Assembly: GCF_028368995.1 (NCBI RefSeq)
Contig: NZ_JAQNDL010000002.1
Coordinates: 1,472,001 to 1,536,000, forward strand
DNA: 64,000 nt
Direction: 5' to 3'
From: Nannocystis bainbridge
GTDB taxonomy: Bacteria; Myxococcota_A; Polyangia; Nannocystales; Nannocystaceae
Position 1 is the stretch's first letter, and each line of letters begins with the position of its first letter. Shown here one piece after another: positions 61 to 34,417 of this stretch. A model generated the notes under the pieces. That model worked only from the letters and a program-made list of their open reading frames with translations. It ran no database searches and had not been told where the DNA came from. The position numbers and the translations under genes are program-made.

Positions 61-160
61 CATCGAGCATGTTCAATAGGACATGCTCTCATGAGCATGT
101 CCTTCGAGTCATGTCCCAAGGATAATGATCTTTCGAGCATGTTCGAGAGGACATGCCTGC
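61..160. repeat. 14-bp-phased CATG array (7 units)
   Basis: CATG at 68, 82, 96, 110, 138 and 152, with AATG at 124; exact 14-bp spacing and variable spacers. Confidence 0.9.
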
Positions 161-200: not shown

Positions 201-1817
201 TCAGCGATCGTGCAGGCGCGTGCCGAGCGGCCGCTTCGCCTCGTCGCGCAGGCCGACGAGCACGCTGTCGCCGGCCTCGGCCAGGGCCAGCTCGCCGTAG
301 CGGGCCGCCTCGAGCGTCGTGGCCTCGCCCTCGGGGAACAGGAACGTCTCCGCCCCGAGGCTCACTTCGTCGCCGCGCTTGTGGTAGCGCAGGCGCAGCT
401 CGCCGGGCCGCAGCGCGCGGCCGTCGTCGACGCGGACGAACTGGGCCACGTCGTCGGCGTCGCGGGTGACGACCAGCGCCCCGCGCGAGGCCATCGCCTG
501 CACGTCGTCCAGCTCGGACACCAGCGCGTAGCGCAGCTCCATGTAGTCGCCCTGCATCAGCGAGCGCGGATCGACCGGGGCAAGGCGCAGCAGCACTCGC
601 TCGCCCGCCGCCAGCACGCGCTCCTTCTCGAACACCACCCACCCGGGGATCGCCAGCCCGAGCGCCAGCGCCAGCGACAACCACCGCAGGTCGCCGCCCC
701 GCGTCGCCAGCCGGCCCGCCTCCGTCTCGCGCGGGCGCGCGGCCGTGCGCCGCAGCAAGCCGGCCAACAGCAGGAACATCAGGCCGTGGCTGACGGCCAC
801 GAGCGACTTGGCCAGCAGCGTCGTGCCGTGCTCGTAGTACCAGAAGCCGAGGAAGCCGCCGATCGCGCTCAGGCCGAGCAGGCGCAGGTTGAAGCTCGCG
901 CGCAGCTGCCCGAGGATCAGCAGCGTCAGCCCGGCGCTGAGGCCCGGGGTGTCGAGGCCGAGCAGGGCGGTCAGCCAGATCCCCACACACGCGGCCGCCT
1001 GGGCCCGCCCGCGCAGCTCCGGCCGCTCGCGCCCCGCCTGTACGATCAGCCAGGTCGACAGCGCCGCCCAGCCCGCCGACAGCGCCATCGCTTCGAGCGC
1101 CCACGCGTCGCCGAGGAACATCGGCAGCCCGTCGGTCGCCCCGTCGCCGGCCCCGACCGTGATCGGCCCCAACAGCGCGAGCGGGAGGGTATACGCCAGC
1201 GGCTGCCACAGCCGGCCCAGCCGCGGCAGCAGCTGCGCCTGCAGCACCCACAGTCCGCACAGACATGTCCCCATGAACAGGGCCAAAAGACCATGTCCGA
1301 AGGGACCTACGTCGAGCTCGGCGGCCAGCACCAGCAGCGCCCAGGCGCCGACCAGGACCGCGGCGCAGCCGATGCTGAGGTCGCGGATCAGCCCCAGCGT
1401 GATCGCTTGCAGGATCATCGTGGCGACGCACATGGCCTCGTCGTCGCCGATGACCTCGGCCAGGCTGACGAGCAGCAGGATCTGGCCGCCGATGGCGGCG
1501 ATCCACCGCAGCTGCAGCTCGAGCAGGGTGGTCGCGCCGCGCGCGAGCACGGCCGCCAGCCCGAGGCCCGCGGCGCCGAGCGTGAGGCCGAGCGGCGCCA
1601 CCTCGGTGACATCCATCTCCACCAGGAAGACCGCCAGCAGCAGCGCCCCGAGCCACACCGAGACCGAGGCGCCCGCCTGCTGCAGCCGCAAGCCCTCGCC
1701 GGTGAGCCCGGTCAAGGCGTCGCGGGTCCGCTGCCCGAGCGGCGTGTCGGCGTCGAGCGCCGCGGGGTCGACGTGGCCCTCGCGGGCCAGCTGCTCGAGC
1801 AGCGCCCGGGTGCTCAC
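201..1817 (-). CDS. Membrane protein, DUF4401-like region fused to a C-terminal GDYXXLXY domain
   Basis: Multiple TM helices, then LAPVDPRSLMQGDYMELRY; GTG start overlaps the upstream stop (GTGA at 1814-1817). Confidence 0.85.
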   Translation of the reverse strand: MSTRALLEQLAREGHVDPAALDADTPLGQRTRDALTGLTGEGLRLQQAGASVSVWLGALLLAVFLVEMDVTEVAPLGLTLGAAGLGLAAVLARGATTLLELQLRWIAAIGGQILLLVSLAEVIGDDEAMCVATMILQAITLGLIRDLSIGCAAVLVGAWALLVLAAELDVGPFGHGLLALFMGTCLCGLWVLQAQLLPRLGRLWQPLAYTLPLALLGPITVGAGDGATDGLPMFLGDAWALEAMALSAGWAALSTWLIVQAGRERPELRGRAQAAACVGIWLTALLGLDTPGLSAGLTLLILGQLRASFNLRLLGLSAIGGFLGFWYYEHGTTLLAKSLVAVSHGLMFLLLAGLLRRTAARPRETEAGRLATRGGDLRWLSLALALGLAIPGWVVFEKERVLAAGERVLLRLAPVDPRSLMQGDYMELRYALVSELDDVQAMASRGALVVTRDADDVAQFVRVDDGRALRPGELRLRYHKRGDEVSLGAETFLFPEGEATTLEAARYGELALAEAGDSVLVGLRDEAKRPLGTRLHDR

Positions 1818-4696: not shown

Positions 4697-4760
4697 GGGA
4701 CATGTCCGTCAGCACATGTCCGTCAGAGCATGTCCCGCAGCACATGCCCTGCAGGCCAGC
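4697..4760. repeat. 14-bp-phased CATG array (4-5 units)
   Basis: CATG at 4701, 4715, 4729 and 4743, CAGC at 4757; lies between convergent genes. Confidence 0.85.
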
Positions 4761-5159: not shown

Positions 5160-5234
5160 CGGTTTCGCGTTATCCCACGCGAACCTGGCGCCAGCAACGG
5201 CCCCACTGCGCCGCAGCAGAACCGCGTTCGGGGG

Positions 5235-5813
5235 TCAGCGGCGGCCGGTGGTGGCCAGCTGCACGGCGATCCCGAGCAGCGCCAGCGCGGCCCACGCGAC
5301 GACCTCGGGGACCGCGTCGGGCAGGCCACCGGTCCACGGCAGGGCCGTCAGGTCGGTCAGCCACCGGATCGGGCTCTCGGCCATCACCTCGGCGCTGCGC
5401 ACCACCAGCGCCGCGCCGGTGATCGCGGTGGCGACGATCAGCACCACCCGCGTCACCACTACGCTGGCGCTGCCGGCCACGCAGGCCAGCAGCAGCTGGA
5501 CCTGCCACGAGACGCCGCCGACGGCCGGCGCGGCGGCCCAGGTCAGCAGCAGCGCCGCGACCGCGCCGATGGCGAAGACGCCGATCCGGAAGTACGCCAG
5601 CACCGTGCCGAGGCCGAGCAGGCCGGCGCCGATCTGCATCAAGCTGGCCGTGAGGACCTGTCCCGGAAACCAGATCGCGGCCAGAGCGGCGCCGGCGCCG
5701 ACGCCGAACACCAGGCCGTAGATGCCGAGCACCAGCGGGAACAACCTGTATCCGGCGATGCAGTGCACGAGCCCCACCAGGAGCGCGACGACGGGGGGCA
5801 GACCGAGCGGCAC
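5235..5813 (-). CDS. Membrane protein, DUF4203/TMEM198-like
   Basis: CIAGYRLF motif, several TM helices, IVATAITGA, GIAVQ. Confidence 0.7.
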   Translation of the reverse strand: MPLGLPPVVALLVGLVHCIAGYRLFPLVLGIYGLVFGVGAGAALAAIWFPGQVLTASLMQIGAGLLGLGTVLAYFRIGVFAIGAVAALLLTWAAAPAVGGVSWQVQLLLACVAGSASVVVTRVVLIVATAITGAALVVRSAEVMAESPIRWLTDLTALPWTGGLPDAVPEVVAWAALALLGIAVQLATTGRR

Positions 5814-6087
5814 GCCGGGACCCTAGCGACCGCGACCGCACAGGGCAAAATAACGGCCGGCCCGGCCGGGGGCAGAGGGCCGGCTCGCCGGTCGCGGCCG
5901 TCGCGGAGGCCAGCTCCGGCAGCGCGCCGGCGAACCCATCCTGGGGGCTGCGAGATCGCGAACGGCCCGTCACGCTCCGCGAAGCCGCGGTCGCGGGTCC
6001 GGATGTTTCACCGTTCGCTGCGAGGACGGACACATGAGGGGTTCCCCCTCGTGACAGGCGATCGTGGTATGGCAGGTCGAACGCGCC

Positions 6088-7392
6088 ATGCGCACCGTCC
6101 TGCTCCTCGCACTCCTGGCCGTGACTCCGCTCGCCTGCGGCGGTGAAGCTGGCGCGGGTGGTCCGGGCGGCCCCGGCGGTCCCGGAGGCAAGGGTCGCCG
6201 CGGCGGTGAGGCCGAGCCGCTGGCCGTCGCCGTCACCACCCTGACCCCGGCCACCATCGAGCGGCACTACCGCGGCGCCGGCACCCTGCGGGCCCTGCGA
6301 GCCGCCGACCTGGTCGCGCTGCAGCCCGGCGTCGTGCTCGATCTCAAGGCCGAAGAGGGCGACCTCGTGGCCGAGGGCCAGCTGCTGGCTCGCCTCGACG
6401 GCCGCGCGTATCAGCTGCAGGCCGCGCGCGACCGCCTCAGCGCCCAGAACGCGGCCAAGGAGCTCGGGCGGCTCGAGCAGTTGACCGGCGTGCTGTCGCG
6501 CGAAGAGCTCGACAAGCAGCGCTACGCCGCCGAATCGGCGCTGGCCAGCGCCCAGGTGTCGCGCCACCAGGCCTCGCAGACGACCGTCTCGGCCCCGTTC
6601 GCCGGCACCATCACCCGCCGCCACATCGACGTCGGCAACCTCGCCACCACCTCCAAGTCGCTCTTCACGATCGCCGACCTCAGCGCCCTCGACCTCGAGC
6701 TGCACGTGCCCGAGCGCGAGGCCAGCGCGGTCCAGGCCGGGGCGCCGGCCGTCGTCGAGCTGCAGGACGGCAGCACGTTCGAGGCCCGGGTCGAGCGCCG
6801 GGCGCCGGTCGTCGACCCGCTGACCGGGACCGTGAAGTTCGTGGTCCGGGCCCGCAGCTTCCCCGCGGGCGCGGTGCCCGGGGCGTTCGCGCGCGCGACC
6901 CTGCGCGTGGCAGTGCGCGAGGCGGCGCCGAGCGTGCCGCGCAGCGCGATCGTCGAGGTCGAGGGCAAGCCGCACGTGTACGTGGTCGAGGAGGGCCGGG
7001 CTCGCCGGCGTCCGGTCGAGCTCGGGCTGGTCGGCGAGGACCGGGCGGAGATCCGCGGCGGCGTGGCCGAGGGCGCCTCGATCGTGCTCGACGCCGGCAC
7101 CGGCATCGCCGAGGGCATGCCCGTGCGCGCGGTCGCCGAGGGCGAGGCCAAGGGAGCCACCAAGGCGACGGGCGAGGGCAAGGCCGACGCTGCCGCGGGC
7201 GGCGAGGGCAAGGCCGCGGCGGGCCAGGCAGGCGCCGCGGCTGCGGGCCTGTCCGCCGAGGCAGGTCCGAAGGGACAGGTCCCCGAGGCCAGGTCCGAAG
7301 GGGCAGGTCCCGAGGGCCAGGTTCCCGCGGCCAGGGCGCAAGAGACAGGTCCGAAGGGGCAGGCGGCCGCGGCGCCGCCAGGGGTCCGGTGA
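6088..7392 (+). CDS. RND efflux periplasmic adaptor (MFP) lipoprotein
   Basis: Lipobox LAC, EGDLVAEGQLLARLD, SAPFAG, VDPLTGT; directly upstream of the RND permeases. Confidence 0.92.
   Translation: MRTVLLLALLAVTPLACGGEAGAGGPGGPGGPGGKGRRGGEAEPLAVAVTTLTPATIERHYRGAGTLRALRAADLVALQPGVVLDLKAEEGDLVAEGQLLARLDGRAYQLQAARDRLSAQNAAKELGRLEQLTGVLSREELDKQRYAAESALASAQVSRHQASQTTVSAPFAGTITRRHIDVGNLATTSKSLFTIADLSALDLELHVPEREASAVQAGAPAVVELQDGSTFEARVERRAPVVDPLTGTVKFVVRARSFPAGAVPGAFARATLRVAVREAAPSVPRSAIVEVEGKPHVYVVEEGRARRRPVELGLVGEDRAEIRGGVAEGASIVLDAGTGIAEGMPVRAVAEGEAKGATKATGEGKADAAAGGEGKAAAGQAGAAAAGLSAEAGPKGQVPEARSEGAGPEGQVPAARAQETGPKGQAAAAPPGVR
7245..7365. repeat. 14-bp-phased CAGG/CCTG array inside the MFP 3' end (9 units)
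   Basis: CCTG at 7248; CAGG at 7262, 7276, 7290, 7304, 7318, 7332, 7346 and 7360. Confidence 0.9.
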
Positions 7393-10300: not shown

Positions 10301-10595
10301 CAACACCGTCAACTACCGTCGCGGCCAGGGCATGGCGGTCGGCCCGGCGCTGGTCGAGGCCGGCCGGTTGCGGCTGCGGCCGATCATCATGACCACGGCG
10401 ACGACCGTGCTCGGCCTGTTGCCGATGGCGTACGGGGTCGGCGACGGCGCGGCCCTGCGCCAGCCGCTCGCGGTCACCGTCATCGGCGGCCTGACCGCGG
10501 CGACCCTGCTGACCCTGGTCGTGATCCCGTGCCTCTACAGCCTGCTGCCCGGCAAGCGCCAGGACGCCTGGGCCGACATGGCGGGGGAGGACTGA
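7389..10595 (+). CDS. RND efflux permease (AcrB/AcrD/AcrF family)
   Basis: RPV N-terminus, GMLVDNSIVVLE, GIVVNNAIVLV, RLRPIIMTT. Confidence 0.95.
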   Translation: MTGEARPRGMVAGAVGRPVTTTMVLVALVVFGLVALTRLPLALLPDLSYPSVTVRTEMPDAAPQEVEELLTRPVEELVSAVPGVVQVESVSREGISEVVLDFGWGTDMDRGLDDVREKLDRVALPTGVQRPVVLRYDPSQEPILRLALVSRDNMRPAELWELADRRVKRALEKIPGVAAVQIHGGDKEEVRVELDPQRLSALRVTADEVAQAIRRDNVNRPGGALSEQKSRYLLRTVHEAREPAELAEVVVRSQSGAELRLRDVAVVARVPVEREELALVAGREAVELAVYREGDANTVAVSRAVQTALPELPLGTGQSVVVLSDQAAFIESAIAEVQSNTLLGGALAVLVLLFFLRDLRATLVIAAAIPISLLVTFVPLQMLGVSLNLMSLGGLALGVGMLVDNSIVVLESIARVRERDPHGGAAATAVRGATEVAASVVASTLTTVAVFLPMAFVEGVAGRLIRDLAYTVSLSILSSMFVSLTLVPVLQSLGGGAGEGEGEPAPRSLIAWLLAPLALAFRGLRVATWSMGKVLRVLTAPFTAAYAAVEDAYPRLLRAALRWRFTVVALAVALCVLAFQQLQGLGSTLLPEIQQGEFFVQISLPQGSSLDRTAHVARRVAAAVEQDEAVAQVFARVGSMTAGDSATGTVAGTHLAQVNVRLQPGLLAPEEAALEEALMLAMAGAAADPEATLRLGRPALFSFDAPIEVRIFSEEPERAIGHALALLPDLRAIEGLADVAPDDLAGRPEVRVDFDRERLSRLNLGVDAAALAVQRAVQGEIATKMHAADRQLDVRVQLPQVDRTRAADVGKIAVAVIGDIPVTVAAVADLVEGTGPAEIRHLDGRRGLRIRARLTGEDLGTVAARVEDVLAAHDPGDGRVQAELGGQAESLGGSMKSMMFAALIAVFLIYVVMASSFESLHHPLLIMFTVPLAVVGVAWGCVLTGTPISAMVGMGAIILGGIVVNNAIVLVNTVNYRRGQGMAVGPALVEAGRLRLRPIIMTTATTVLGLLPMAYGVGDGAALRQPLAVTVIGGLTAATLLTLVVIPCLYSLLPGKRQDAWADMAGED

Positions 10596-10596
10596 C

Positions 10597-13500
10597 GTGA
10601 GCGACCATCGACCTGGCGAAGGGGACATGTCCCCGAACGCAGGTCCGATCGGACCTGGCCCCGAGGACATGTCCTCGAAGGCAGGCCCGCAGGTCAGCGG
10701 TCGAGCCAGCCTCAGCGACCTCGCGCTCGACCGCCCGGTGATGATCGGGATGCTGCTGCTGGCGATCCTGGTCCTCGGCGCGATCGCCACCGCCCGCCTG
10801 CCGCTGGCGTTCCTGCCGGCCGGCGGGACCGCGCGCGTGTCGCTGCGCATCAACCTCCAGCGCACCAGCCCGGAGCTGGTCGAGCGCGAGATCATCCGCC
10901 CGGTCGAGGAGGCGATGGCCGGGCTGCGCGGGCTGCAGCGGATCCAGGTCGGCAGCGGCGGCTGGGGCGTGCGCGTCAACCTCGAGTTCGTCGCCGGCAC
11001 CGACATCGCGGCGCGCAAGGCCGAGATCCGCGAGCGCTTCGACCGCATCCGCGGGACCCTGCCGGACGCGATCACGCGGGTCACGCTCGACTCGTGGGGC
11101 CGCTCCGACGACGCGGTGGTCAAGCTGCGCCTCGCCAGCGACAGCGACCTGACGCGCTCGTACGACCTGATCGAGCGCTACGTGGTGCGGCCGATCGAGC
11201 GCATCCCGGGGGTCTCGCGGGTCGAGCTCGAGGGCGTCGAGCCGCGCGAGCTCGAGGTGGCGCTCGACCTCGAGGCCCTGCGCCGCGCCGGTGTGTCGGC
11301 CCAGGCCGTCAGCACCGCCGTGCGCGAGGCCAGGCAGGGCCGCAGCCTCGGCGTCCTGCGCGAGGACGCGACCCAGCCCGGCGTGCGCGCGCCGCCGATC
11401 GACGCCGACCCGCAAGCGTTCGCGGCCCTGCCGGTGGCCCGCAGCCGCGGGGCCGCGGCGTCGACGACCTCCGCGGCCACCACGGCGCCGCGCACGACCG
11501 CGACGCCTGCCTCTTCGGGCATGTCCTCGGGGACAGCTTCCGCCGGGACCACGCCAGCGGTCTCGGCCACCGCGCCCCTGACGGCCCAGGGCCCGCAAGG
11601 CGTCGGCGCGCGCAGCAACACCGCCAGCGTCGGCCCGGGCGTCTACACCAGCACGCCGATCGGGTCCGGGGTCGCGCCGGCCACGGCGGCGGCGGCCGGG
11701 CAGACCAGCGCGGCCGTGCCGGCGCGGGTCGGCGAGGTCGCGCGGGTCGAGGTCCACCCGCGAGAGAACCGCAACTTCCGCAGCCTCGACGGCCGCCTCG
11801 GCGTCGACCTCTCGGTCTACGCCGACGCCGGGGCCAGCCCGGTCGACGTCGCCCAAGCCGTCAACGGGGTGGTCGAGGAGCTGCAAGCCAGCCCGCGGCT
11901 CGGCGGCATCTCGGCGGTCGTCTACCACGACCAGGGCAAGATCATCCTCAAGACGCTGGCCGACCTGCGCGACACCGGCATCTACGGCGGCGTGCTCGGG
12001 GTGGCCATGCTGTGGCTGTTCCTGCGCCGCTGGGGCGTGACGATGGTGGCCGCGCTGTGCATCCCGCTGACGATCCTGGCGACCTGCGGGGTCCTGCTGA
12101 TCCGCGGCGAGGAGCTCAACTGCATCGTCCTGCTCGGCCTCGTGCTCGGCGTCGGCATGCTGGTCGACAACGCGGTCGTCATCACCGAGGCGATCGAGCT
12201 CCAGGCCCAGCGCGGGCTGCCGGCGCGCCTGGCGGTGCGGGCCGGCGGGCGCGAGGTCGGCCTGGCGACCGTGGCGTCGACGCTGTCGAGCGTGATCGTG
12301 TTCCTGCCGCTGGTGTTCGGCGACCCGGCCAACCCGATGAGCGCGCTGCTGGCCCCGCTCGGCCTGACCTTCGCCACGGTCCTTTTGTGCAGCCTGTTCG
12401 TCAGCCAGACGCTGGTGCCGCTGATCATGCCGACGGTGCTGCGGCGCGGCGGGGTGGCCGAAGGGACAGGTCGCGGCGGACGCCTGCTCGGCCCGCTGAT
12501 CGCCGGCTACGGGCGCCTGATCGCGTTCACGCTGCGGTTCCGCCGGACCGCGCTGGTGCTCGGCCTCGGCCTCGCGGCCAGCGCCGTCATCCCGGTCCGG
12601 CTGCTGGGCTACAACCTCACCGACATCGACCCGAAGCCCGACTGGGTCGAGGTCAGCATGCAGTTCGTCGGCAGCCCCGGCTACAAGGAGATCGGCGAGC
12701 GCGTGCGCGTGGTCGAGGAGGCGATCCTGGCCAAGAAGGACGCGCTCCAGGTCACCCACGTGTCGTGCGCCTACTCCGACTTCTGGGGCCGCTGCGACGT
12801 CCACCCGATCGCCCGCGCCGCCTCCGAGGCCGACGTCGAGGCGTTCACCACCACCGTCAAGCAGGCGCTGCCCGAGCAGCCGGGCGTGCGCTACCTGGTC
12901 GGCGAGAACAACCGCGGGCACATGCGCGGCAACTCCGATCGCCACGAGGTCGAGCTGGCGATCAAGGGCGAGGACATGGGCGTGCTCATGGACCTGTCCG
13001 AAAGGGCAGCTTCGCACCTGCGCGCGACGCTGCCGCGCGGCAGCGCCGACAACCCCGAGTCGGGCGGCGTCGACACCGTGATCGGCCCCTACGACGAGGG
13101 CTCGCGCGAGCTCCACGTCCGCCTCGACGGCGCCCTGCTGCGCCGCTACGGCCTGCGCGCCGACGACGTCGCGCGCCTGATCCAGACCGCGTTCCAGGGC
13201 ACGCCGCTCGGCCAGGTGCGCAGCCCCGAGGGGCAGATCGAGCTGCGCCTGTCGGCCGGCAACGCCAGCGGCAGGGCAGGGGACGGGCCGACGCTCGAGC
13301 AGCTGCGCGACCTGCCGATCCCGCTGGCCGACGGCGGCGAGGTCACCGTCGGCAGCATCGCCTCGCTCGAGCCGACGCGCAGCCCGTTCTACATCCAGCG
13401 GCTCGACCGCGAGACCCAGGTCAAGGTCAAGGCCCGCTTCTTCACCCCCGACCCGGAGAAGAACCGCGCCGCCGTCAACAAGGCGATGGAGAGCTTCGTG

Positions 13501-14088
13501 TTCCCGACCGGCTACAGCAGCGGCGAGTGGTCGCGCTGGGGCCGGACGCAGCGGTCGAGCATGGAGGTCCTGATCGACCTCGGCCTGTGCCTGCTGCTCG
13601 TCTACGCGGTGATGGCCTCGCTGTTCGAGAGCTTCCTGCAGCCGTTCGCCATCCTCGCGACGTGCCTGCTCGGCTGCGTCGGCGCCCCGTGGCTGATGTG
13701 GTGGACCGGCACCACCGTCGACACCACGGCGATGATCGGCCTCTTTATCCTCATCGGCATCGCCGTCAACAACGGCATCATGCTGATCGACCGCGCCATC
13801 CAGCTGCGCGCCGTCGGCATGACCCGCGACCAGGCGCTCGCGGCCGCCGGCTCCGACCGCCTGCGCCCGATCTTGATGACCGCGGGTACGACGGTGCTCG
13901 GCCTGGTGCCGATGCTGATCCACCACCCCACACTCGCAGGCGTCTACTACCACGCCATCGCGCTGATCCTCGTCGGCGGACTGGCGTCGAGTACGGTCAT
14001 GACGCTGGTCTTCCTGCCGGCCACGTACAGCTTGCTCGACGACCTGGCCCGCTCGGCCCGCTCGGTGTGGCGGCGCGTGGCCAGATGA
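10597..14088 (+). CDS. Second RND efflux permease with low-complexity insertion
   Basis: GMLVDNAVVITE, GIAVNNGIMLID, RLRPILMT; A/T/S-rich insert at ~11440-11720. Confidence 0.93.
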   Translation: MSDHRPGEGDMSPNAGPIGPGPEDMSSKAGPQVSGRASLSDLALDRPVMIGMLLLAILVLGAIATARLPLAFLPAGGTARVSLRINLQRTSPELVEREIIRPVEEAMAGLRGLQRIQVGSGGWGVRVNLEFVAGTDIAARKAEIRERFDRIRGTLPDAITRVTLDSWGRSDDAVVKLRLASDSDLTRSYDLIERYVVRPIERIPGVSRVELEGVEPRELEVALDLEALRRAGVSAQAVSTAVREARQGRSLGVLREDATQPGVRAPPIDADPQAFAALPVARSRGAAASTTSAATTAPRTTATPASSGMSSGTASAGTTPAVSATAPLTAQGPQGVGARSNTASVGPGVYTSTPIGSGVAPATAAAAGQTSAAVPARVGEVARVEVHPRENRNFRSLDGRLGVDLSVYADAGASPVDVAQAVNGVVEELQASPRLGGISAVVYHDQGKIILKTLADLRDTGIYGGVLGVAMLWLFLRRWGVTMVAALCIPLTILATCGVLLIRGEELNCIVLLGLVLGVGMLVDNAVVITEAIELQAQRGLPARLAVRAGGREVGLATVASTLSSVIVFLPLVFGDPANPMSALLAPLGLTFATVLLCSLFVSQTLVPLIMPTVLRRGGVAEGTGRGGRLLGPLIAGYGRLIAFTLRFRRTALVLGLGLAASAVIPVRLLGYNLTDIDPKPDWVEVSMQFVGSPGYKEIGERVRVVEEAILAKKDALQVTHVSCAYSDFWGRCDVHPIARAASEADVEAFTTTVKQALPEQPGVRYLVGENNRGHMRGNSDRHEVELAIKGEDMGVLMDLSERAASHLRATLPRGSADNPESGGVDTVIGPYDEGSRELHVRLDGALLRRYGLRADDVARLIQTAFQGTPLGQVRSPEGQIELRLSAGNASGRAGDGPTLEQLRDLPIPLADGGEVTVGSIASLEPTRSPFYIQRLDRETQVKVKARFFTPDPEKNRAAVNKAMESFVFPTGYSSGEWSRWGRTQRSSMEVLIDLGLCLLLVYAVMASLFESFLQPFAILATCLLGCVGAPWLMWWTGTTVDTTAMIGLFILIGIAVNNGIMLIDRAIQLRAVGMTRDQALAAAGSDRLRPILMTAGTTVLGLVPMLIHHPTLAGVYYHAIALILVGGLASSTVMTLVFLPATYSLLDDLARSARSVWRRVAR
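10608..10690. repeat. 14-bp-phased array inside the N-terminal extension of the second permease (6 units)
   Basis: CCTG 10612, CATG 10626, CAGG 10640, CCTG 10654, CATG 10668, CAGG 10682. Confidence 0.85.
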
Positions 14089-14171
14089 GCGAACGCGAGA
14101 CCGCGCCCTGCGTGTGACCGCCAACGTCCGCCGGCGCGCGAAAAGCCACCCCTGACCGCGGCTCCCGCGGG

Positions 14172-15038
14172 ATGATGGCCAGGTCCATGTCCGCCTCCAG
14201 CCCCGAACCCTCGCCCGAGCTGGCCACGCTCCTCGCCGAGAACGCCGCGCTGCGCGAGCGCAACGAGCTGCTCACGGCCGTCATCCGCCACTGCCCAGCG
14301 GTGATCTTCGTCAAGGACACCGAGGGTCGGCTGTTGGTGTGCAACCAGACCTACGAGCTGCTGACCGGGGCCGGGCCCGGGGGCCTGATCGGCAAGACCG
14401 ACGCCGACATCTTCGGCCCCGAGGCCGGGGCGCAGAACCGCAGCAACGACCTCCGGGTGTGCGAGAGCGGCGTGCCGCAGGAGGTCGAGGAGCTCATCCC
14501 GCAGAGCGACGGGGTCCACGTCTATCTCTCGGTCAAGTTCCCGATCTACGACGCCCGCGGCCAGCTGTGCGGCCTCGGCGGGATCGCCACCGACATCAGC
14601 GAGCGGCGCCGGGCCGAGGAGGAGCGCAACGCGCTTCAGCAGGAGGTCATCGCCGTCCAGCGCTCGGTGCTCGCCGAGCTGTCGACCCCGATCGTGCCGA
14701 TCGCCGACAACGTGATCGCGCTGCCCTTGATCGGCACCATCGACCGCGACCGCGGCCGCGCCATCATGGAGGCGCTGCTCGAGGGCGTGGCCGAGTACCG
14801 GGCCCGCGCGGCCATCCTCGACGTCACCGGCGTGCGCTCGATCGACGCCCAGATCGCCGCCGGTCTGCTGCAGGCGGTCCACGCGGCCCGCCTGCTCGGG
14901 ACCCGCGTGATCGTCACCGGCATCCGCCCGGAGGTCGCGCAGGCGATGGTCGGCCTCGACGCCGACTGGCGCAGCGTCGAGATCTTCGCCACCATGCGCG
15001 AGGCCGTCGCCTGGGCCCTCGGCCGCGCACGGCGCTGA
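14172..15038 (+). CDS. PAS + STAS domain protein (RsbR-like)
   Basis: PAS (IFVKDTEGR...GIATDISERR), then ELSTP...LPLIGTID...ILDVTGV...TGIRPEVA. Confidence 0.92.
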   Translation: MMARSMSASSPEPSPELATLLAENAALRERNELLTAVIRHCPAVIFVKDTEGRLLVCNQTYELLTGAGPGGLIGKTDADIFGPEAGAQNRSNDLRVCESGVPQEVEELIPQSDGVHVYLSVKFPIYDARGQLCGLGGIATDISERRRAEEERNALQQEVIAVQRSVLAELSTPIVPIADNVIALPLIGTIDRDRGRAIMEALLEGVAEYRARAAILDVTGVRSIDAQIAAGLLQAVHAARLLGTRVIVTGIRPEVAQAMVGLDADWRSVEIFATMREAVAWALGRARR

Positions 15039-15043
15039 CGACG

Positions 15044-15210
15044 ATGGCATGTCCCGAAGGCCATGCTCTTCGGGACATGTACTGCAGGACATGAGCATTG
15101 CGCCATGCCCTGAAGCACATGCGTTCGAGGCCATGCTCCCGAGAACATGTGCATCGAGACATGTCCATGAGGACATGGCCTGATGGCCATGCCCTGAGGG
15201 ACATGCCACG
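15044..15210. repeat. 14-bp-phased CATG array (12 perfect-core units)
   Basis: CATG at 15048, 15062, 15076, 15090, 15104, 15118, 15132, 15146, 15160, 15174, 15188 and 15202; between convergent genes. Confidence 0.95.
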
Positions 15211-15214
15211 CACC

Positions 15215-17125
15215 TCAGTCGCGCGCGCGCGAGCGGGTGAACAGCCCGCCGAGGCCGAGCAGCAGCGACAGCCCGCCCACCGCCAGACCTGTCCCATAGG
15301 CCAGGCGCGAGCGGAGCTCGGCCGCGGCCGTCTCCGGGCGCTCGACGCTGGCGGTCAGGCGCGCCTGCAGCTGCGGGTCTTCGGGCGCCAGCTCGGCCGC
15401 GGTCGCCAGCAGCATGCGCCGGCCGTCCTCGGTGGCGGCCAGGTCGGCCTCGGCCAGCAGCGCCTGGACCCGCAGCGCGTCGGCGCGGCCCGGATCGGCC
15501 TCGTCGAGCAGCGCCGCGCTCTTGCGCCACAGGCGAGCGCCCTGCGCCAGATCGCCGGCGGCGGCGGCCTCGCTGGCGGCCTGCTCGTAGGTCGGCACCA
15601 GCTCGGCGCGGGCGCTGAGCTGCGGATCGTCGGCGAGCAGGCGATCGAGGATCGCGATCGCGGCCGCGCGATCGGGCTCGCCGAGCGCCGCCGCGATCTC
15701 GGCCCGCTCGCGCTCGCGGCGGCCGTCGTCGAGCCGCTCGAAATACGCCCGCGCCAGCCGCTCCGGCTGGGCCTCGCACACCCCGGCGAACACGCTGTCC
15801 TTCGGCGCCGAGCGGCAGTCGGGTTCGGCCAGCTCGGGCTGATGGCTGGCGATCCGACTCATGATCGCGATCCGGGCCAGGTCGCGGTACGTCAGCTGCG
15901 CCGCCGACTCGCCGGTGCCGCCGCCGACGAAGCGCAGCAGCTTGCGCTCGGCCCGCGGCGCCGGCCCGGTCACGAACGCCAGGAACGCCTCGCGCGCGGC
16001 CTCACGCACCCGCGGGATCGCGGCGTCGACGAAATCGAGCAGCGGCCCGGCCGCGTCGCCCGGGCGGACCACGGCGTAGGCCGCGATCAGATCGGCGAGC
16101 CGCGCCGGATCGTCGCCGACCGCCTGCAGCGCCTTGCGCGGGTGGGCCCGGTCCATGCGGTCGACCTGGTAGCCGGCGTACTCCGCCGTGCGATAGGCGA
16201 CCGAGTCCTTCACCACCTGCGCCTCGCCCTCGTCGGCGGGCAGGGGCGGGCGGACCGAGCGCCGCAGCAGCCCGGGCAGCGCCGGATCGCCGAGGCGGCG
16301 GATCGCTCGCCCGACCTCGTCGCGGAACGTGCTCTCGTGCAGGTACGCGGCCGCCAGCAGCGCCTCGACGACCTCGTCGGTGTGCGCCGGCACGGCCCCG
16401 ATCGAGGCCGCCGCGCGCAGCAGCGCCGCCTGGATCACGCAGTCGCGGTAGATCGGCCGCAGCACCTTCGACACCTGGCGCGACGGCAGGGCCAGCAGGT
16501 CGGTGAACCAGTCCTCCGACAGCTTGATCCCTTGGTGGCCGTGGGCCTTCTTCCACGCCAGCTCGAAGTGCCCGTAGCGGTTCGGCACGTCGCCGCCGAT
16601 CACAGCCAGCAGCGCTTTGTAGTCGGCCTTGCGGGCGCTGCGCGGCGCCAGCAGCTCGGCCCGGACCGCCGGCCACAGCTCCGGGGGCGCCGCCGCCAGC
16701 GCTCGCGCCAGCGGCCCGAGGTCGCGGTGCGGCCCGTCGCGCATCGCCGCGATCAGCCCCGCGAGCTCGTCCGCGGCCGTCGGCGGCGCGACCGGCTGGC
16801 CTTCGATACCTGGCGCATCGACCCTGTCGGAAGGTTCCTGTTCTTCGGGACCTGTCCCTTCGGACTCGCGCGGCGGCCCGGTCTTGGCCTTGGCCTTGCG
16901 CTTCGCCGGGCGGGCGGGCTCGGCGTCGTCGGCGGGCAGCTCCGCGACCGCGGCGTCGAGCTCGCGGTCGCCCAGGGCCGCGGCCTGGGCGAACCAGAGC
17001 TCGTAGCGGTCGGCCCAGGCCTGGGCCTGCAGCGTGTCGGCCGACGAGCGGGTCAGGACCACGACCTGCGGCTCACCGGCGCAGGCGGCGACCAGGGTCG
17101 AAAGGAGCAGGGCGCGCCGTGGCAT
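15215..17125 (-). CDS. Hypothetical lipoprotein, HEAT/TPR-like helical, with C-terminal TM helix
   Basis: Lipobox VAAC, Ala-rich helical repeats, C-terminal hydrophobic segment. Confidence 0.75.
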   Translation of the reverse strand: MPRRALLLSTLVAACAGEPQVVVLTRSSADTLQAQAWADRYELWFAQAAALGDRELDAAVAELPADDAEPARPAKRKAKAKTGPPRESEGTGPEEQEPSDRVDAPGIEGQPVAPPTAADELAGLIAAMRDGPHRDLGPLARALAAAPPELWPAVRAELLAPRSARKADYKALLAVIGGDVPNRYGHFELAWKKAHGHQGIKLSEDWFTDLLALPSRQVSKVLRPIYRDCVIQAALLRAAASIGAVPAHTDEVVEALLAAAYLHESTFRDEVGRAIRRLGDPALPGLLRRSVRPPLPADEGEAQVVKDSVAYRTAEYAGYQVDRMDRAHPRKALQAVGDDPARLADLIAAYAVVRPGDAAGPLLDFVDAAIPRVREAAREAFLAFVTGPAPRAERKLLRFVGGGTGESAAQLTYRDLARIAIMSRIASHQPELAEPDCRSAPKDSVFAGVCEAQPERLARAYFERLDDGRRERERAEIAAALGEPDRAAAIAILDRLLADDPQLSARAELVPTYEQAASEAAAAGDLAQGARLWRKSAALLDEADPGRADALRVQALLAEADLAATEDGRRMLLATAAELAPEDPQLQARLTASVERPETAAAELRSRLAYGTGLAVGGLSLLLGLGGLFTRSRARD

Positions 17126-17182
17126 GCGGCCTGGGTACCAAGGGCAGGGGAGATCCCCAAATTAGTCACGCCTGCCCGCGGC

Positions 17183-17530
17183 TCAGTGGAGCCGGTCTTC
17201 GGGGACAGGTGCGCCGATCTCGGGCACGAAGCGGAGGAAGCGCAGACCGGCGCCGCTGAGGGCGCGCAGGCCGTCGCTGCCGGCGTACTGGAGATAGTAG
17301 TGGTTCTGAATGCGCGCGATCGCACAGATCGCGGCTTCGTCGCCCGGCATTTGGAAGCGGATGATCACCTTCGTCCGCAGCGGCAGCGGCTCGGGCATCT
17401 CGATGAACATGCCGGACTCCGAGATGTTGCGGGCGACGCACCACTGCTCCCCCACCTCCTCCGAGAAGACCAGCACGGGGAAAACTTTGTCGATCCGCGA
17501 AGAGCCACGGCGATCCTGGGCGACACGCAT
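17183..17530 (-). CDS. PilZ domain protein
   Basis: RRGSSR (RxxxR) and NISESG (D/NxSxxG) motifs, GLRF; start trimmed to ATG 17530. Confidence 0.85.
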   Translation of the reverse strand: MRVAQDRRGSSRIDKVFPVLVFSEEVGEQWCVARNISESGMFIEMPEPLPLRTKVIIRFQMPGDEAAICAIARIQNHYYLQYAGSDGLRALSGAGLRFLRFVPEIGAPVPEDRLH

Positions 17531-17708
17531 GATCAGAGCATCGCCGGGTCGGTGCATGAACACAAATATCCTACATGTGCGCCAGGGTGAGTCAATAAAT
17601 ACGGTGCTGGAGTGTGCTTTCTGCGCGCGTGCGCGAGGTCTGGCTGGCGGACGCCCCGCGCGCTTGATTCGGCCTGCGCCATCCCCCATAAAGCCCGGAC
17701 TTTTGGCC

Positions 17709-18686
17709 ATGGAAACCGATCCCACGCCGGAGCAGCGCGACGATGTGTCCTTTCGGGCAGGTACCGTCGCGCTGTGCGGGCGGCCCAACGTCGGCAAGTC
17801 GACCCTCCTGAACGCCCTCGTGGGCAGCGACCTGGCGGTCGCTACCCGGTTCCCGCAGACCACCCGCGAGCGCTTGCTGGGCGTGTGGTCGGAGGACGGG
17901 TTTCAGGCCGTGCTGGTCGACACCCCCGGCATCCACCGCGCCAAGTCGGCGCTCAACAAATTCATGGTCGACGAGGCGCTGCGCGGGGCGAAGGCGGTCG
18001 ACCTGGTGCTGATGCTCGCCGAGGCGCCGCTGCTCGCCGACACCGCCGCCGCCGAGGAGTGGGAGCCGGGCCCGTCGGCCGCCGCCGCGCTCGCCTCGCT
18101 CGCCACCGCCGGGCGGCCGATCGCGCTGGTGCTCACCAAGTGCGACCGCATCGAGGACAAGGGGCTGCTGCTGCCGATCCTCCACAAGTGGTCGACGCTG
18201 CACCCCTTCACCGCGCTCATCCCGATCAGCGCCACCGCCGGCGAGGGCCTGAAGCAGCTGCGCGACCACGTCGTCGCCGCTCTTCCGGTCGCCGAACCGC
18301 TGTTCCCCGAGGATCAGCTGAGCGACCGCGCGATCCGCTGGCACGCCGGCGAGCGCGTGCGCGCGGCCCTGTTCGACCACCTGCGCGACGAGCTGCCGTA
18401 CTGCTGCGCCGTCACCGTCGAGTCCTTCAAGGAGCAGCGCAAGCCGCCCCGGGACATCGTCCACGCCAGCGTCCACGTCGAGCGCGACAGCCAGAAGCCG
18501 ATGGTCATCGGCCGCGGCGCCGAGACGATCAAGGCCATCTCGATGTCGGCCCGGCGGGCGATCGCCGAGCTGACCGGACGGCCATGTGAACTCTACCTCG
18601 AGGTCAAGGTGACCCCGAATTGGACCCGCGACCCGGCGCTGATGCAGCGCCTCGGCCTGCACGTGCCCGTGGGGGGCCTGTCATGA
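17709..18686 (+). CDS. era: GTPase Era
   Basis: GRPNVGKS, PQTTR, DTPG, TKCD, KH domain ERDSQKPMVIG. Confidence 0.96.
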   Translation: METDPTPEQRDDVSFRAGTVALCGRPNVGKSTLLNALVGSDLAVATRFPQTTRERLLGVWSEDGFQAVLVDTPGIHRAKSALNKFMVDEALRGAKAVDLVLMLAEAPLLADTAAAEEWEPGPSAAAALASLATAGRPIALVLTKCDRIEDKGLLLPILHKWSTLHPFTALIPISATAGEGLKQLRDHVVAALPVAEPLFPEDQLSDRAIRWHAGERVRAALFDHLRDELPYCCAVTVESFKEQRKPPRDIVHASVHVERDSQKPMVIGRGAETIKAISMSARRAIAELTGRPCELYLEVKVTPNWTRDPALMQRLGLHVPVGGLS

Positions 18687-20155
18687 GCGAGCACGACGAC
18701 GATCTGGCCGAAGAGCCAGGCGAAGACATCTCCGAGGACGGCCCGGCGCCGAGCGCCGACGTCAACCGTCGCACCAGCGTGGTAGCGATCGTCGGCCGCC
18801 CGAACGTCGGCAAGTCGACCCTCTTCAACCGCCTGATCGGCTCGCGTCGGGCGATCGTCGAGGATCGCCCGGGCGTCACCCGCGACCGCCTCTACGGCGT
18901 CGTCACCCACGACGGCAAGAGCTACGTGATCGTCGACACCGGCGGCCTCGACTTCGAGGACGAGTCGCTCGGCAGCCAGATCCGCGTCCAGGCCGAGATC
19001 GCGATCGAAGAGAGCGACCTGATCCTGTTCGTCGTCGACGCCTTCGACGGCATCATGGCCGACGACCGCGACATCGCCGACATCCTGCGCCGCTCGGGCC
19101 GGCCGGTGCTGGTGGTCGTCAACAAGTGCGACAACCCCGAGCGCGAGCTCGCGGCCCAGGCCGCGCACGAGCTCGGCTTCCCGATCCTCGCCGTGTCCGC
19201 GGCGCACGGTCGCAACGCCGCCGAGCTGCACGATCACGTGCTCGGGCAGGTCCAGCAGCCCGCGCTCGAAGGCGTGCTCGCCAACACCCTCGAGGGCACC
19301 CGCGTCGCCTTCATGGGCCGCCCCAACGCCGGCAAGTCGAGCCTCATCAACGCGCTGCTCCGCGAGCCGCGGGTGATCGTCAACGCCGAGGCGGGCACCA
19401 CCCGCGACCCGATCGACCTGCCGTTCGAGTTCAACAAGCAGCCGATCGTCCTCATCGACACCGCGGGGCTGCGGCGGCGCAAGCAGATCGAGCGGGCCAT
19501 GGAGAAGCTGGCCGCGATCAAGGCGATCCGGACGATGGAGCGGACCCAGGTGGTCGCGCTCATCGTCGACGCCACCATGGGCGTCACCGACCAGGACCAG
19601 CGGCTGGCCCGCATGGCCCACGAGCGCGGCAAGGGCGTCGTCGTCTGCCTCAACAAGTGGGATCTCGTCGCGCGCGACAAAAAAGCCGCGCACGCCGTGC
19701 AGGTCCAGGCCGAAGAGGAACTGCAGTTCCTCGAGAAGCCCTACATCATCAAGACCTCGATCACCGGCGCCGGGCGCGACCGGGGGCAGGGCCACGCCCG
19801 CGGCCTCGGCGAGCTGATGGAGGCGTGCCTGCTCACCGCGCGCGCGCTCGGCAAGCACATCTCGACCGCGGATCTCAACGCCGAGCTCGCAGCCGCGGTC
19901 GCCGAGCACTCGCCGCCGATGTTCGGGCCCAAGCCGGTAAAACTGTTGTTCGCTACCCAGGCCGAGAGCGATCCCCCGCTGATCGTCATCTCTGCCAACC
20001 ACGGACGCTGTCTTCCGGCGTCCTACGAGCGCTACTTGCTGCGTCGCTTTCGGACTCGCTGGAACCTGCGCGGCATCCCCGTGCGGCTCGTCGTGCGCGC
20101 CCGTGGCCGCACCAACAGCGAGCGGGGCCGGGGCGCGAACAAGTCGGCCGAGTGA
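18683..20155 (+). CDS. der: Ribosome biogenesis GTPase Der (EngA)
   Basis: Two G domains (GRPNVGKS/GVTRD and GRPNAGKS/GTTRD), C-terminal SYERYL; ATGA overlap with era. Confidence 0.96.
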   Translation: MSEHDDDLAEEPGEDISEDGPAPSADVNRRTSVVAIVGRPNVGKSTLFNRLIGSRRAIVEDRPGVTRDRLYGVVTHDGKSYVIVDTGGLDFEDESLGSQIRVQAEIAIEESDLILFVVDAFDGIMADDRDIADILRRSGRPVLVVVNKCDNPERELAAQAAHELGFPILAVSAAHGRNAAELHDHVLGQVQQPALEGVLANTLEGTRVAFMGRPNAGKSSLINALLREPRVIVNAEAGTTRDPIDLPFEFNKQPIVLIDTAGLRRRKQIERAMEKLAAIKAIRTMERTQVVALIVDATMGVTDQDQRLARMAHERGKGVVVCLNKWDLVARDKKAAHAVQVQAEEELQFLEKPYIIKTSITGAGRDRGQGHARGLGELMEACLLTARALGKHISTADLNAELAAAVAEHSPPMFGPKPVKLLFATQAESDPPLIVISANHGRCLPASYERYLLRRFRTRWNLRGIPVRLVVRARGRTNSERGRGANKSAE

Positions 20156-29544: not shown

Positions 29545-29885
29545 TCTGCATGTACTCCTGAACATGCCTCGCGGGACATGCTCATACAGACATAAACAAA
29601 TCGTCATGTCCAAAGGGCCATGACCAGATGTACATGGCCGATCGATCAGATACATATGTCTGATACAACATGCCCGATAGACCATGCCCAAAGGGACATG
29701 TCCTCTAAAACATCATCGCATGCCCTATGCGACATGCCCGATCGAACATGGCTATATGGACATGTCCTCTAGAACATCCTCGCATGTCCGATGCGACATG
29801 CCCGATCGACCATGCTCACATGGACATGTCCTATGGAACATTCTCGCATGTCCGATGCGACATGCCCGATCGACCATGTCCTCTC
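29545..29885. repeat. Large 14-bp-phased CATG array with a 64-bp higher-order repeat
   Basis: Cores every 14 bp from 29549 to 29875, with 8-bp steps before 29655, 29719, 29783 and 29847, giving 64-bp units. Confidence 0.95.
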
Positions 29886-29893
29886 GAACTTCG

Positions 29894-33211: not shown

Positions 33212-33292
33212 CCGGCATGGCTGCGAGGACATGTCGCCGAGAGCATGTCCGTGCGGGCATGTCTTCTTGCACATGCCCGATCGCACATGTCC
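33212..33292. repeat. 14-bp-phased CATG array (6 units)
   Basis: CATG at 33216, 33230, 33244, 33258, 33272 and 33286; between convergent genes. Confidence 0.9.
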
Positions 33293-34417
33293 TCAAAGCC
33301 AGCGCACGAACATGAACGCGGCCAGCACCGCCGGCGGGGCCAGCAGCAGGCCCTCGAGCCCGCGTAGGCGGCCGCTGCGTTCGGGCGCGGGCACCGGCAG
33401 GGCGGCCAGCAGGGCGGCGTTGCGCCGGCGCTCGCGCGCCAGGATCTGCAACGGGCTCAGCCACAGCGCCGCCATGGCGCACCACAGCGCGATCCTCGGC
33501 GCGTCGGGCGGCTGAGCGCGCGACACCAGCCAGCCGCTCACGAGCAGGAGGGCGACCAGGCGCAGGCGCAGCAGCGGGCACAGGCGCAGCAGCTGGGTGG
33601 TGCCGAGCTGCAGGATCGGGTTGTGCATTCGCGCGACGAAGCCCGGGCGCGGGGCGGGCACGCCGGTGCCCGCCAGCCGCCGCGTCGCCTCGCTGAGCCA
33701 CGGCACCGCCTCCCACAGCCCCGCCGCGTAGAGCCGACCGGCCGTCACGCGCACGACGAGCGCCGCCAGCATCGGCGCCGCCAGCAGCGTCCAGTGCTGC
33801 GTGCTGGCGGTCCCGCGCTCGGCCAGGCGGGCCAGCGTCAATTGCCCAGGCATGGCGATCAGCGTCGCCAGCCCGACCCCGAGCGCCGGCGCGTAAAGGT
33901 GCACGGCCGCCTCCTCGGCCGTCCAGCCGCCCGCGCCGAAGCGCTGCGCCTCGCCGATCCAGTGCTCGGGCGGGAACCGGCGCCCGGCGTAGGCCGCGAG
34001 CCCGGCGATGCCCGGCTCGATCAAGCTGGCCGCCAGCGCCAGCCACAGGAAATCACCGAGCAGCCAGGCGCAGCGCGTGAGGTCGGGCAGGGTCGCGGCC
34101 GCGATGGCGCCGGCCCCGGCGACGACGGTCAGCGCCAGGCCGCGGCGGTGCGCCGGGAGGGCCGATCGGAAGTGGCGCGCCGGCTCGATCGGCAGCGGCA
34201 GCAAGCGCTCGCGCTCGGGCGCGTGGAGGTAACCGCCGAGGCGCGCGTGCAGGCCGGCGAGCAGGAGGAACGGACCGCCGGCGAACACGAGGCCGCGCTG
34301 CGCGGTCAACTCGGGCTCGTTGGCCAGCGCGATAGACCAGGCGGCAGCCAGCACCAGCGGTGCGACCCACGCATTGGGCCAGGTCGCCGGCCAGCGGGGC
34401 AGGGGAGGGGCACGCAC
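33293..34417 (-). CDS. Hypothetical polytopic membrane protein
   Basis: Multiple hydrophobic segments, LLPLPI and LAALPV loops. Confidence 0.7.
   Translation of the reverse strand: MRAPPLPRWPATWPNAWVAPLVLAAAWSIALANEPELTAQRGLVFAGGPFLLLAGLHARLGGYLHAPERERLLPLPIEPARHFRSALPAHRRGLALTVVAGAGAIAAATLPDLTRCAWLLGDFLWLALAASLIEPGIAGLAAYAGRRFPPEHWIGEAQRFGAGGWTAEEAAVHLYAPALGVGLATLIAMPGQLTLARLAERGTASTQHWTLLAAPMLAALVVRVTAGRLYAAGLWEAVPWLSEATRRLAGTGVPAPRPGFVARMHNPILQLGTTQLLRLCPLLRLRLVALLLVSGWLVSRAQPPDAPRIALWCAMAALWLSPLQILARERRRNAALLAALPVPAPERSGRLRGLEGLLLAPPAVLAAFMFVRWL

Follow-up and report, generated by a model that had tools for sequence, protein, structure and literature searches.

Short palindromic words that recur throughout bacterial genomes, such as HIP1 and the REP elements, have been known for decades, and their function is not agreed upon. 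The uptake sequences DUS and USS of Neisseria and Haemophilus are genome-wide words of about ten bases, whose inverted pairs often stand behind genes as terminators, while plasmid centromeres and operators of the omega/ParR/ParG type consist of iteron or heptad arrays to which small dimeric proteins bind cooperatively. HIP1 is the highly iterated palindrome GCGATCGC of cyanobacteria, which, according to the available part of the source, is 15- to 300-fold over-represented, occurs within as well as between ORFs, and is conserved from genome to genome (PMC5861425). The same text takes this conservation as evidence of selection and treats a role in chromosome or nucleoid structure as suspected and unproven, and HIP1 has also been linked to methyltransferases (PMC4390886, available part). 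REPs lie behind genes, separating convergent or unidirectional ORFs, and often form clusters (PMC3733652, available part), and those of E. coli are described in the accessible text of a recent report as terminators and mRNA stabilisers (10.64898/2026.03.23.713779).

Here we describe an element of Nannocystis that combines HIP1-like and REP/BIME-like features and is a member of neither family. The original prediction held that no element of this form had been described, which agrees with the open-access literature: in the accessible text of open-access papers and bioRxiv preprints on Nannocystis and other myxobacteria, including the Sorangium and N. exedens genome papers, the element is not described. 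The genome comprises 11.05 Mb in five contigs, with 71.5% GC, and the analysed stretch of 64,000 nucleotides, referred to as the window, corresponds to C3:1472001-1536000.

The main array of the window (Table 1) fills the gap between two convergent genes. Direct reading confirmed the predicted 12 CATG cores at an exact 14-bp period, from 15048 to 15202, separated by differing 10-nt spacers; counted as abutting TGYCC-N4-GGRCA units, and including the degenerate units at its edges, the array has 13 members. The stop codon of the PAS-STAS gene lies 9 bp upstream of the first CATG, and that of the 636-aa ORF lies 9 bp beyond the last one. This ORF also carries isolated units at 15290-15303 and 16839-16866. 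By chaining of in-phase cores, the main array ranks second in length in the genome. Tandem Repeats Finder flags only fragments of it (15140-15207), because the units are too dissimilar. The soil-metagenome contigs that align to positions 1-20000 of the window (X1-X4) are short and of low depth, and the listed piece that reaches the main array (643 nt) stops inside it, at 15126.

Table 1 Phased arrays, isolated units and flanking genes in the window
Feature	Coordinates	Strand	Remarks
Main array	15044..15210	.	12 CATG cores 15048-15205, 14-bp period
PAS + STAS domain protein, 288 aa	14172..15038	+	PF08448 1.2e-18, PF01740 3.7e-11
Convergent 636-aa ORF	15215..17125	-	without Pfam match
Array	68..155	.	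6 in-phase CATG cores; 6 units above 8 bits
Small array	1252..1307	.	3 units above 8 bits across 4 unit lengths
Array	4701..4758	.	4 cores; convergent ORFs 2974-4668 (+) / 4761-5234 (-)
Degenerate array	7251..7363	.	CAGG cores replace CATG; period 14, higher-order periods 28 and 42
Array	10610..10689	.	3-4 units, between two tandem AcrB-type pump genes
Composite array	29549..29890	.	five blocks, 3-5 units each
Array	33216..33301	.	6 cores; convergent ORFs 32411-32899 (+) / 33293-34531 (-)
Isolated unit, intragenic (AcrB-type pump)	12995..13008	.	16.1 bits
Further isolated intragenic units	17746-17759, 27118-27131, 38758-38771

The four further arrays of the original prediction were recovered with our own script, at 68-152 (6 cores), 4701-4743 (4), 29549-29875 (five sub-arrays) and 33216-33286 (6). 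Altogether the window contains 26 in-phase CATG triplets, and 100 dinucleotide-preserving shuffles gave none (mean 0.00, maximum 0). Three arrays had been placed between convergent genes, and those at 4701, 15048 and 33216 indeed lie there, the number with our crude ORF model being three or more. The array at 33216-33301 overlaps the end of ORF 33293-34531. The composite array lies directly 3' of the stop of ORF 29894-31579 (-) and contains four-unit blocks at a 64-bp period (14x4 + 8; 85% matches, 29656-29878), which are a recent block duplication. The degenerate array at 7251-7363 falls within the C-terminal tail of a HlyD-type adaptor ORF (6064-7392), the HlyD domains of which stop near residue 263 of 442, and it is therefore apparently translated, while the array at 10610-10689 falls inside an annotatable 5' extension of ORF 10597-14088. 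A match to a known repeat family, which would have spoken against a new element, was not obtained for any array of the window in Rfam, the sole match in the window being a tRNA (61452-61517).

The 14-bp phase is a property of the whole genome. The proposed autocorrelation check gave 3736 CATG pairs at lag 14, where 144 are expected (25.9-fold), and the excess continues at lags 28, 42 and 56 (14.4-, 11.0- and 5.2-fold), whereas lag 13 stands at 0.5-fold and lag 15 at 1.8-fold, the level seen at every multiple of three. Arrays with at least three in-phase cores number 988 genome-wide, with 367 of three cores, 283 of four, 212 of five, 94 of six and 23 of seven; only nine are longer, with a maximum of 16. 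The predicted consensus CATG-YCC-N4-GGR holds over 2770 spacers, with position frequencies of T.53/C.37, C.75 and C.75 before the N4, and G.72, G.70 and A.57/G.30 after it.

The atomic unit, however, is the interrupted palindrome TGYCC-N4-GGRCA and not the CATG core, which arises because units abut. At the left edge of the arrays the unit preserves only its own ..TG (CCTG 133, GCTG 83, GATG 44, GGTG 32), and at the right edge only its CA.. (CAGC 97, CATC 86, CAGG 85, CACC 46). A near-complete unit is missing on both sides in only 182 of the 1771 GGRCATGYCC junctions. Units that have no abutting half-sites, by contrast, are common. In the genome there are 2828 exact units, against about 66 expected from the half-site counts, while the same half-sites at spacers of 2, 3, 5 and 6 occur 91, 93, 54 and 28 times, and in the everted arrangement 38 times. 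The excess of the unit is 40- to 100-fold, and scanning with a weight matrix yields 11,069 units of at least 10 bits, compared with 714 in a reversed-sequence control. In this respect the unit resembles HIP1, exceeding the 15-fold lower end of its range both here and in the six large genomes of the genus (below), with the difference that GCGATCGC is uninterrupted and cyanobacterial, whereas the Nannocystis motif is an interrupted 5-N4-5 palindrome from another phylum. The junction GGRCATGYCC is also what we take to be the p53 half-site consensus; the p53 profile PF00870, run without a positive control, gave no match in the genome.

Units either abut exactly or stand far apart. The distances between matrix hits concentrate at 14 bp (2986), 28 (1632), 42 (1047), 56 (547) and 70 (210), whereas distances of 13, 15, 27 and 29 bp occur 0, 3, 35 and 13 times; minor bumps at 21-22 and 36 derive from a 22-bp variant. 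For HIP1, the available text of PMC5861425 reports neither exact head-to-tail arrays nor a marking of gene ends.

As predicted, the spacers drift whereas core and phase are retained: 2164 of the 2770 spacers are distinct. Spacers of one array agree at 4.5-5.0 of 10 positions, compared with 4.2 in random pairs, and their reverse-complement matches remain at the random level. The N4 is identical in 2.8-3.9% of unit pairs from the same array and in 1.3% of random pairs, and therefore few units are recent copies, although copy events are nonetheless seen, namely the 64-bp-period blocks of the composite array and a four-unit duplication relative to the comparison genome G005. The N4 is saturated, whereas the other ten positions of the unit and, above all, its phase are retained. 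Its composition is also non-neutral, with about 45% GC compared with 71.5% in the genome and strand-symmetric word preferences (CGAA 68/TTCG 50, TGAA 49/TTCA 55). An ordinary 14-bp minisatellite shares with these arrays the period and a copy number that varies between relatives, but, as the original prediction had noted, it differs in the spacers, which are identical in the true 14-bp repeats found elsewhere in the phylum and near-random here, with ten of fourteen positions and the phase held. Neutral decay of a tandem repeat, considered originally as a possible cause of the spacer divergence, does not account for it, since indels are nearly absent at the junctions and recent copies are few.

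To place the arrays relative to genes we used ORFs running from stop to stop, with a minimum length of 240 nt and a GC3 above 0.82 (6699 ORFs, about 82% of the genome); the context counts that follow are approximate, because this gene model is crude and its 5' ends are over-extended. Of the 988 arrays, 707 are intergenic, 102 overlap the end of an ORF and 179 lie inside one, many of these near an unreliable 5' end. Among the 705 intergenic arrays with both neighbours, 415 lie between convergent, 259 between tandem and 31 between divergent ORFs; counted by gaps, an array is present in 393 of 1177 convergent, 242 of 1957 tandem and 27 of 705 divergent ones. The first CATG is found at a median of 38 nt from a facing stop codon, compared with 329 nt from a facing ORF start. 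The longer the array, the larger the convergent share, which is 15% for single units and reaches 46% for five units; 12 of the 14 longest arrays lie between convergent ORFs. Among the 4314 gene ends that adjoin a gap of 40 bp or more, 1303 have two or more units inside 120 nt. This location, downstream of genes and between convergent or unidirectional ORFs, is that of the REPs, and both systems are confined to a species or genus and amount to hundreds or thousands of extragenic palindromes per genome.

The two systems differ in most other respects. REPs are 20-40 bp long and tagged with GTAG or CGTC, and their copies, spread by descent from few masters, resemble one another from end to end, whereas the Nannocystis unit has 14 bp, its loops are unrelated between copies, and its units abut in exact phase and occur also inside genes. 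No such tag appears in sequence logos of the 42 nt on either side of the 988 arrays, which show only decaying units. The RAYT/Y1 transposase profile PF01797 had no match in the genome (90.5% complete), with a positive control in 6 of 14 genomes; CGTC-type REPs are likewise without RAYT, as stated in the available part of PMC3733652, so that the missing RAYT alone does not exclude the REP family.

Inside genes, a coding mask retains 902 exact units, against 11-66 for spacers of 0-12 other than 4, and 519 of the exact units have both flanks at a GC3 of at least 0.85 in the ORF frame. These 519 occur in all three phases, show an even distribution along the ORFs and correspond to peptides without relation to one another. 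Such a genome-wide word excess in coding and non-coding DNA is common to the uptake sequences DUS and USS, which differ in being non-palindromic and are not known to form phased arrays. Conservation was evaluated against G005, the closest genome in the genus, of which 400 kb are collinear with C3:1.295-1.690 Mb and about 88-92% identical in genes. For the 57 of 134 isolated units with ungapped alignments, the only ones used for this one genome pair, identity is 96.1% at the ten specified positions, 91.1% in the flanks and 89.9% in the N4. Third codon positions are identical in 139 of 144 cases within the unit (96.5%) and in 1671 of 1976 control cases (84.6%; p 1.3e-5), and unclassified or non-coding positions in 185 of 190 and 2657 of 2919 (p 0.001), while first and second codon positions at the same 57 sites show no difference between unit and control. 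The excess at third positions indicates that the unit is maintained as DNA, including at sites where it is silent in the protein. Like HIP1, the unit is thus present and conserved within and between ORFs, as far as 57 sites in one genome pair are concerned.

Among about 330 genomes of the phylum, phased arrays are restricted to Nannocystis. Runs of four in-phase CATG number 869 in the genome studied here, 409-527 in five other 12-13-Mb genomes of the genus and 1-13 in five genomes that are placed in the same genus but are smaller, more distant and less complete. None was found in the reversed control or outside the genus, where eight further genera of the family and 12 further families of the class were covered. 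Another 300 genomes of the phylum yielded no comparable arrays; 11 of them have 14-bp CATG arrays, with 1-5 matches each, and those listed are perfect or near-perfect repeats. The exact unit has a wider range: 2271-2846 copies in the six large genomes (reversed control 21-34), 170-1071 in the small genomes of the genus (control 8-32), a weaker excess in two sister genera (246 vs 47 and 233 vs 18) and 69 vs 15 in a genome of another family (G028), the remaining genomes being within about two-fold of the control. Exact abutting pairs number 7 and 14 in two distant genomes of the genus and 0 in the two sister genera. The unit is therefore older, and the arrays are a later elaboration.

Within the genus, array positions are maintained across species. 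Orthologues of the PAS-STAS protein in N. punicea, N. exedens, N. pusilla, N. radixulma and N. sp. share 78-88% protein identity, which assigns the window to Nannocystis or its immediate neighbourhood, and in 6 of 6 large genomes the stop of this gene is followed by an array of 4-12 cores (4-7 in the other five, 12 here), in which related first units are recognisable and the other spacers are different. Of the 56 arrays in the 400 kb compared with G005, both flanks were located for 40; 29 of these were dropped as ambiguous, and the 11 counted loci all have units in G005, at least two of them abutting in 10 cases. The G005 site orthologous to the array at 33216-33301 has five units. The cores of orthologous arrays interchange CATG, CAGG and CCTG, which explains arrays with CAGG cores such as that at 7251-7363.

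The degenerate positions Y3 and R12 of the unit show a strand asymmetry that tracks the direction of both replication and transcription. T-G outnumbers C-A by 99 to 16 where the sense strand is the leading strand, compared with 42 to 50 in head-on genes, and by 282 to 165 in convergent gaps oriented by replication; T and G are preferred on the lagging-strand template, with respect to replication, and on the sense strand, with respect to transcription. The composition of the N4 tracks replication alone. The asymmetry favours a single-stranded form of the arrays, and it may come from a deamination-type mutation bias at the only positions where transitions are free, or may come from selection for hairpins that tolerate G.U or G.T pairs.

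Three other accounts of these arrays have to be weighed against a protein that would read the palindrome as duplex DNA. The closest competitor, which we consider possible but doubtful, is a REP-like element acting as RNA or single-stranded DNA: arrays would be transcribed as 3' UTRs, core-core pairing would fold them into an extended hairpin in which 10-bp helices alternate with 4x4 loops, and, like the E. coli REP arrays, this structure would act as a terminator for transcription arriving from either side or as a barrier to 3' exonucleases. The position of the arrays, close behind stop codons, rare in divergent gaps and, for the longest, nearly always between convergent genes, fits this account and the downstream location and terminator-stabiliser role of known REPs, as does the frequent marking of gene ends: in a sample of 1500 of these, 449 had an array and 117 a hairpin plus T-run, and an array of at least two units lies downstream of 6 of 102 tRNA genes and upstream of 0 of 102. 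The main array also folds very stably as a single strand (-85.6 kcal/mol, z -6.6), because each core is self-complementary, 200 arrays average -0.45 kcal/mol per nt, and U and G at the degenerate pair of the sense strand would suit G.U pairing. However, compensatory variation is absent from the 2770 units. The pairing observed at mirrored positions is what multiplying their individual frequencies gives (0.444 vs 0.418, 0.597 vs 0.570, 0.571 vs 0.574), their mutual information is at most 0.013 bit, and no covariation beyond the consensus was detected within units, between neighbouring units or over whole arrays; the half-sites vary independently, and thus the sequence is constrained and not the pairing. 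Likewise, the 200 real arrays fold barely better than arrays assembled from genome-pooled units (mean z -0.28; 10.5% below -2, 3.5% above +2). Positions 14000-16000 contain 0 sites resembling an intrinsic terminator, no T enrichment or T-run follows the arrays in the flank logos, and stable tetraloops in the N4 show no sense-strand excess (GNRA 37 vs 31, UNCG 19 vs 15). A hairpin tolerates a one-base bulge, yet a spacing of 13 or 15 essentially never occurs, and the RNA account gives no role to isolated intragenic 5-bp palindromes conserved at synonymous sites.

That the element has no cellular function seems unlikely to us. Under this explanation the unit would spread by molecular drive (for example through biased repair, through preferential uptake of DNA or recombination, or through a mobilising enzyme since lost), and arrays expanded by slippage would persist where they are least harmful, in gaps without promoters. 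The convergent bias that rises with array length is predicted by such a safe-haven model, and the differing unit numbers between species (12 vs 4-7 cores at the PAS-STAS locus), the block duplications, the greater age of the units, seen in sister genera and distant genomes of the genus, and the drop of unit density in 100-kb bins of lower GC (r about 0.55), which other native-DNA signatures share, all point the same way. Drive on single units, however, would not protect the junctions, where indels are nearly absent while the N4 is saturated; unit pairs resembling recent copies amount to only about 2-3%, the ordinary 14-bp repeats of 11 other genomes in the phylum have identical spacers, and a search for a Y1 transposase (PF01797) found none. 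We regard it as very improbable that the arrays are clustered targets of a CATG-specific or other DNA methyltransferase and act through their methylation state, as the original prediction had offered as an option. CATG is a known methyltransferase target, HIP1 provides a precedent for such a link, and the genome encodes one D12-class adenine methylase and about nine N6/N4 methylase matches, but CATG itself is unlikely to be the selected feature: isolated units do without it, the array edges conserve the half-sites (TG.. and ..CA) in its place, and orthologous cores replace it. The D12 family, moreover, is present in 25 of 31 relatives, a distribution unlike that of the motif, and a C5 methylase was not found in the genome. 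Here the element differs from HIP1, whose methyltransferases recognise the inner part of GCGATCGC, since no methylase that tracks the Nannocystis motif was found. The remaining probability belongs to other explanations.

The reading we favour, tentatively and from sequence statistics, is that TGYCC-N4-GGRCA arrays are cooperative binding sites of a putative dimeric DNA-binding protein. It is favoured by the two-fold symmetry of the unit, the enrichment of a spacer of 4 alone, the independent half-sites, the exact abutment, the conserved intragenic units and the array positions shared between species, and the AT-rich, strand-symmetric N4 fits indirect readout of the spacer. The 14-bp palindrome would be read by a probably abundant dimeric protein of the Nannocystis lineage, with single sites scattered over the genome, genes included (about 11,000 by the weight matrix). 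Exact abutment would bring neighbouring dimers into contact, and at 14 bp per dimer successive dimers would be turned by about 120 degrees round the helix, so that an array could be coated cooperatively. Accumulated directly behind stop codons, chiefly between convergent genes, such arrays would form a symmetric protein-DNA block that stops or insulates transcription, or handles its supercoiling, from both sides while leaving promoters undisturbed. Several observations count against a protein reader: the location of the arrays is the classic one of REPs, which act as RNA, the single-stranded array is strongly self-complementary, and the transcription component of the Y3/R12 asymmetry is not predicted by a purely double-strand reader.

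The original prediction had proposed binding or polymerisation sites for a DNA-binding protein, such as a nucleoid or terminus organiser. The statistics described here favour such sites, but a terminus role is not supported: units occur at about 100 per 100 kb all round the genome, and the density of arrays far from dnaA exceeds that near it by a factor of at most about 1.6. The window itself sits at the GC-skew switch opposite dnaA. In mechanism, the closest parallel to the proposed protein reader would be the cooperative iteron arrays of the omega/ParR/ParG type, with their short, directly abutting sites, an alternating half-site orientation that is allowed, and a protein coat along the helix, which in our case is a proposal drawn from the sequence signature. 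They differ in occupying one or a few plasmid loci with the protein gene adjacent, whereas the Nannocystis arrays occupy about 1000 chromosomal loci without a linked gene. A broader form of the protein reading, which we find rather unlikely as a whole, is a sequence-coded chromatin layer, in which the dimeric protein, present at about 11,000 sites, would polymerise on the arrays behind some 1000-1300 gene ends, a third of the convergent gene pairs included, and create bidirectional barriers to transcription and supercoiling, that is, insulators.

With a sharp motif and about 1000 gene ends, the Nannocystis element is easy to test, and the absolute spacing rule makes 13-, 14- and 15-bp variants natural controls. 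Its genus-level distribution, graded over the sister genera, should allow comparative genomics to name the reader. Nannocystis is a producer of natural products, and for the annotation and engineering of its genomes the arrays matter in that ORFs are easily over-extended through them, examples being 10597 and 7251-7363. Should the arrays act as RNA, they would be the main recognisable 3'-end signal of a genome poor in classical terminators; if a protein coats them, they would represent a new kind of bacterial boundary element, in organisms with genomes among the largest of bacteria.

The GC skew of contig C3 switches from positive to negative near 1.5 Mb, and the window (positions 1-64000, C3:1.472-1.536 Mb) lies at this switch, while dnaA, at 4.35 Mb of contig C1 (C1:4353122-4353607), adjoins the opposite switch. 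It is therefore probable that the replication terminus lies within the window. Genome-wide, the 14-bp unit, the interrupted palindrome TGYCC-N4-GGRCA, shows a strand asymmetry at its two degenerate positions, where the leading or sense strand carries T and G. This asymmetry tracks the directions of both replication and transcription, whereas that of the N4 spacer tracks replication only.

Units are unevenly spread along the window. The first half carries an array of abutting units every few kb, whereas positions 36006-64000, where the GC content is lower (0.645-0.72), contain only two units scoring at least 12 bits. Genome-wide, 100-kb bins of low GC likewise hold fewer units (r about 0.55), one example being C1:1.1-1.3 Mb, where the unit counts are 25 and 14 and arrays are absent. 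The window also holds repeats of other kinds, which are listed below together with one CAGG-core array.

Repeats of other kinds and a CAGG-core array in the window
Feature	Window position	Description
CAGG-core array	7251-7363	inside C-terminal tail of HlyD-type adaptor ORF 6064-7392
Tandem repeat, 73-bp unit	27637-27820	2.6 copies, 82% matches, inner 42-bp period
Coding-type repeats, 15, 30 and 48 bp	53589-53853	AAGCCCGAGGCGAGC and relatives
Repeat, 68-bp unit	56323-56455	1.9 copies, 92% matches

The 73-bp tandem repeat has no relation to the palindrome family. The 68-bp unit includes GGGGCGCGCCCC, a palindrome that follows a T-run and resembles a classical terminator. The coding-type repeats suggest a repetitive protein segment rich in Lys, Pro, Glu and Ala.

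The PAS-STAS locus, together with its convergent neighbour, has three matches in G003, another genome of the genus (G003:C20:136847-144508 and G003:C9:1-2538). Two of these lie on one contig and are inverted relative to each other, a pattern that points to either a large inverted duplication or an artefact of assembly.

The stop codon of the HlyD-type adaptor ORF, which contains the CAGG-core array, overlaps the start (7389) of the next, AcrB-type gene; this 14-nt-period array therefore seems to be translated, as a tail with a 14-residue period. For the second AcrB-type gene (10597-10730 region), the longest ORF begins at 10597 and stays open across an array at 10610-10689, which reads as the peptide ...GEGDMSPNAGP...EDMSSKAGP...; the real start is probably further downstream. 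Start-codon calls can be misled by arrays.
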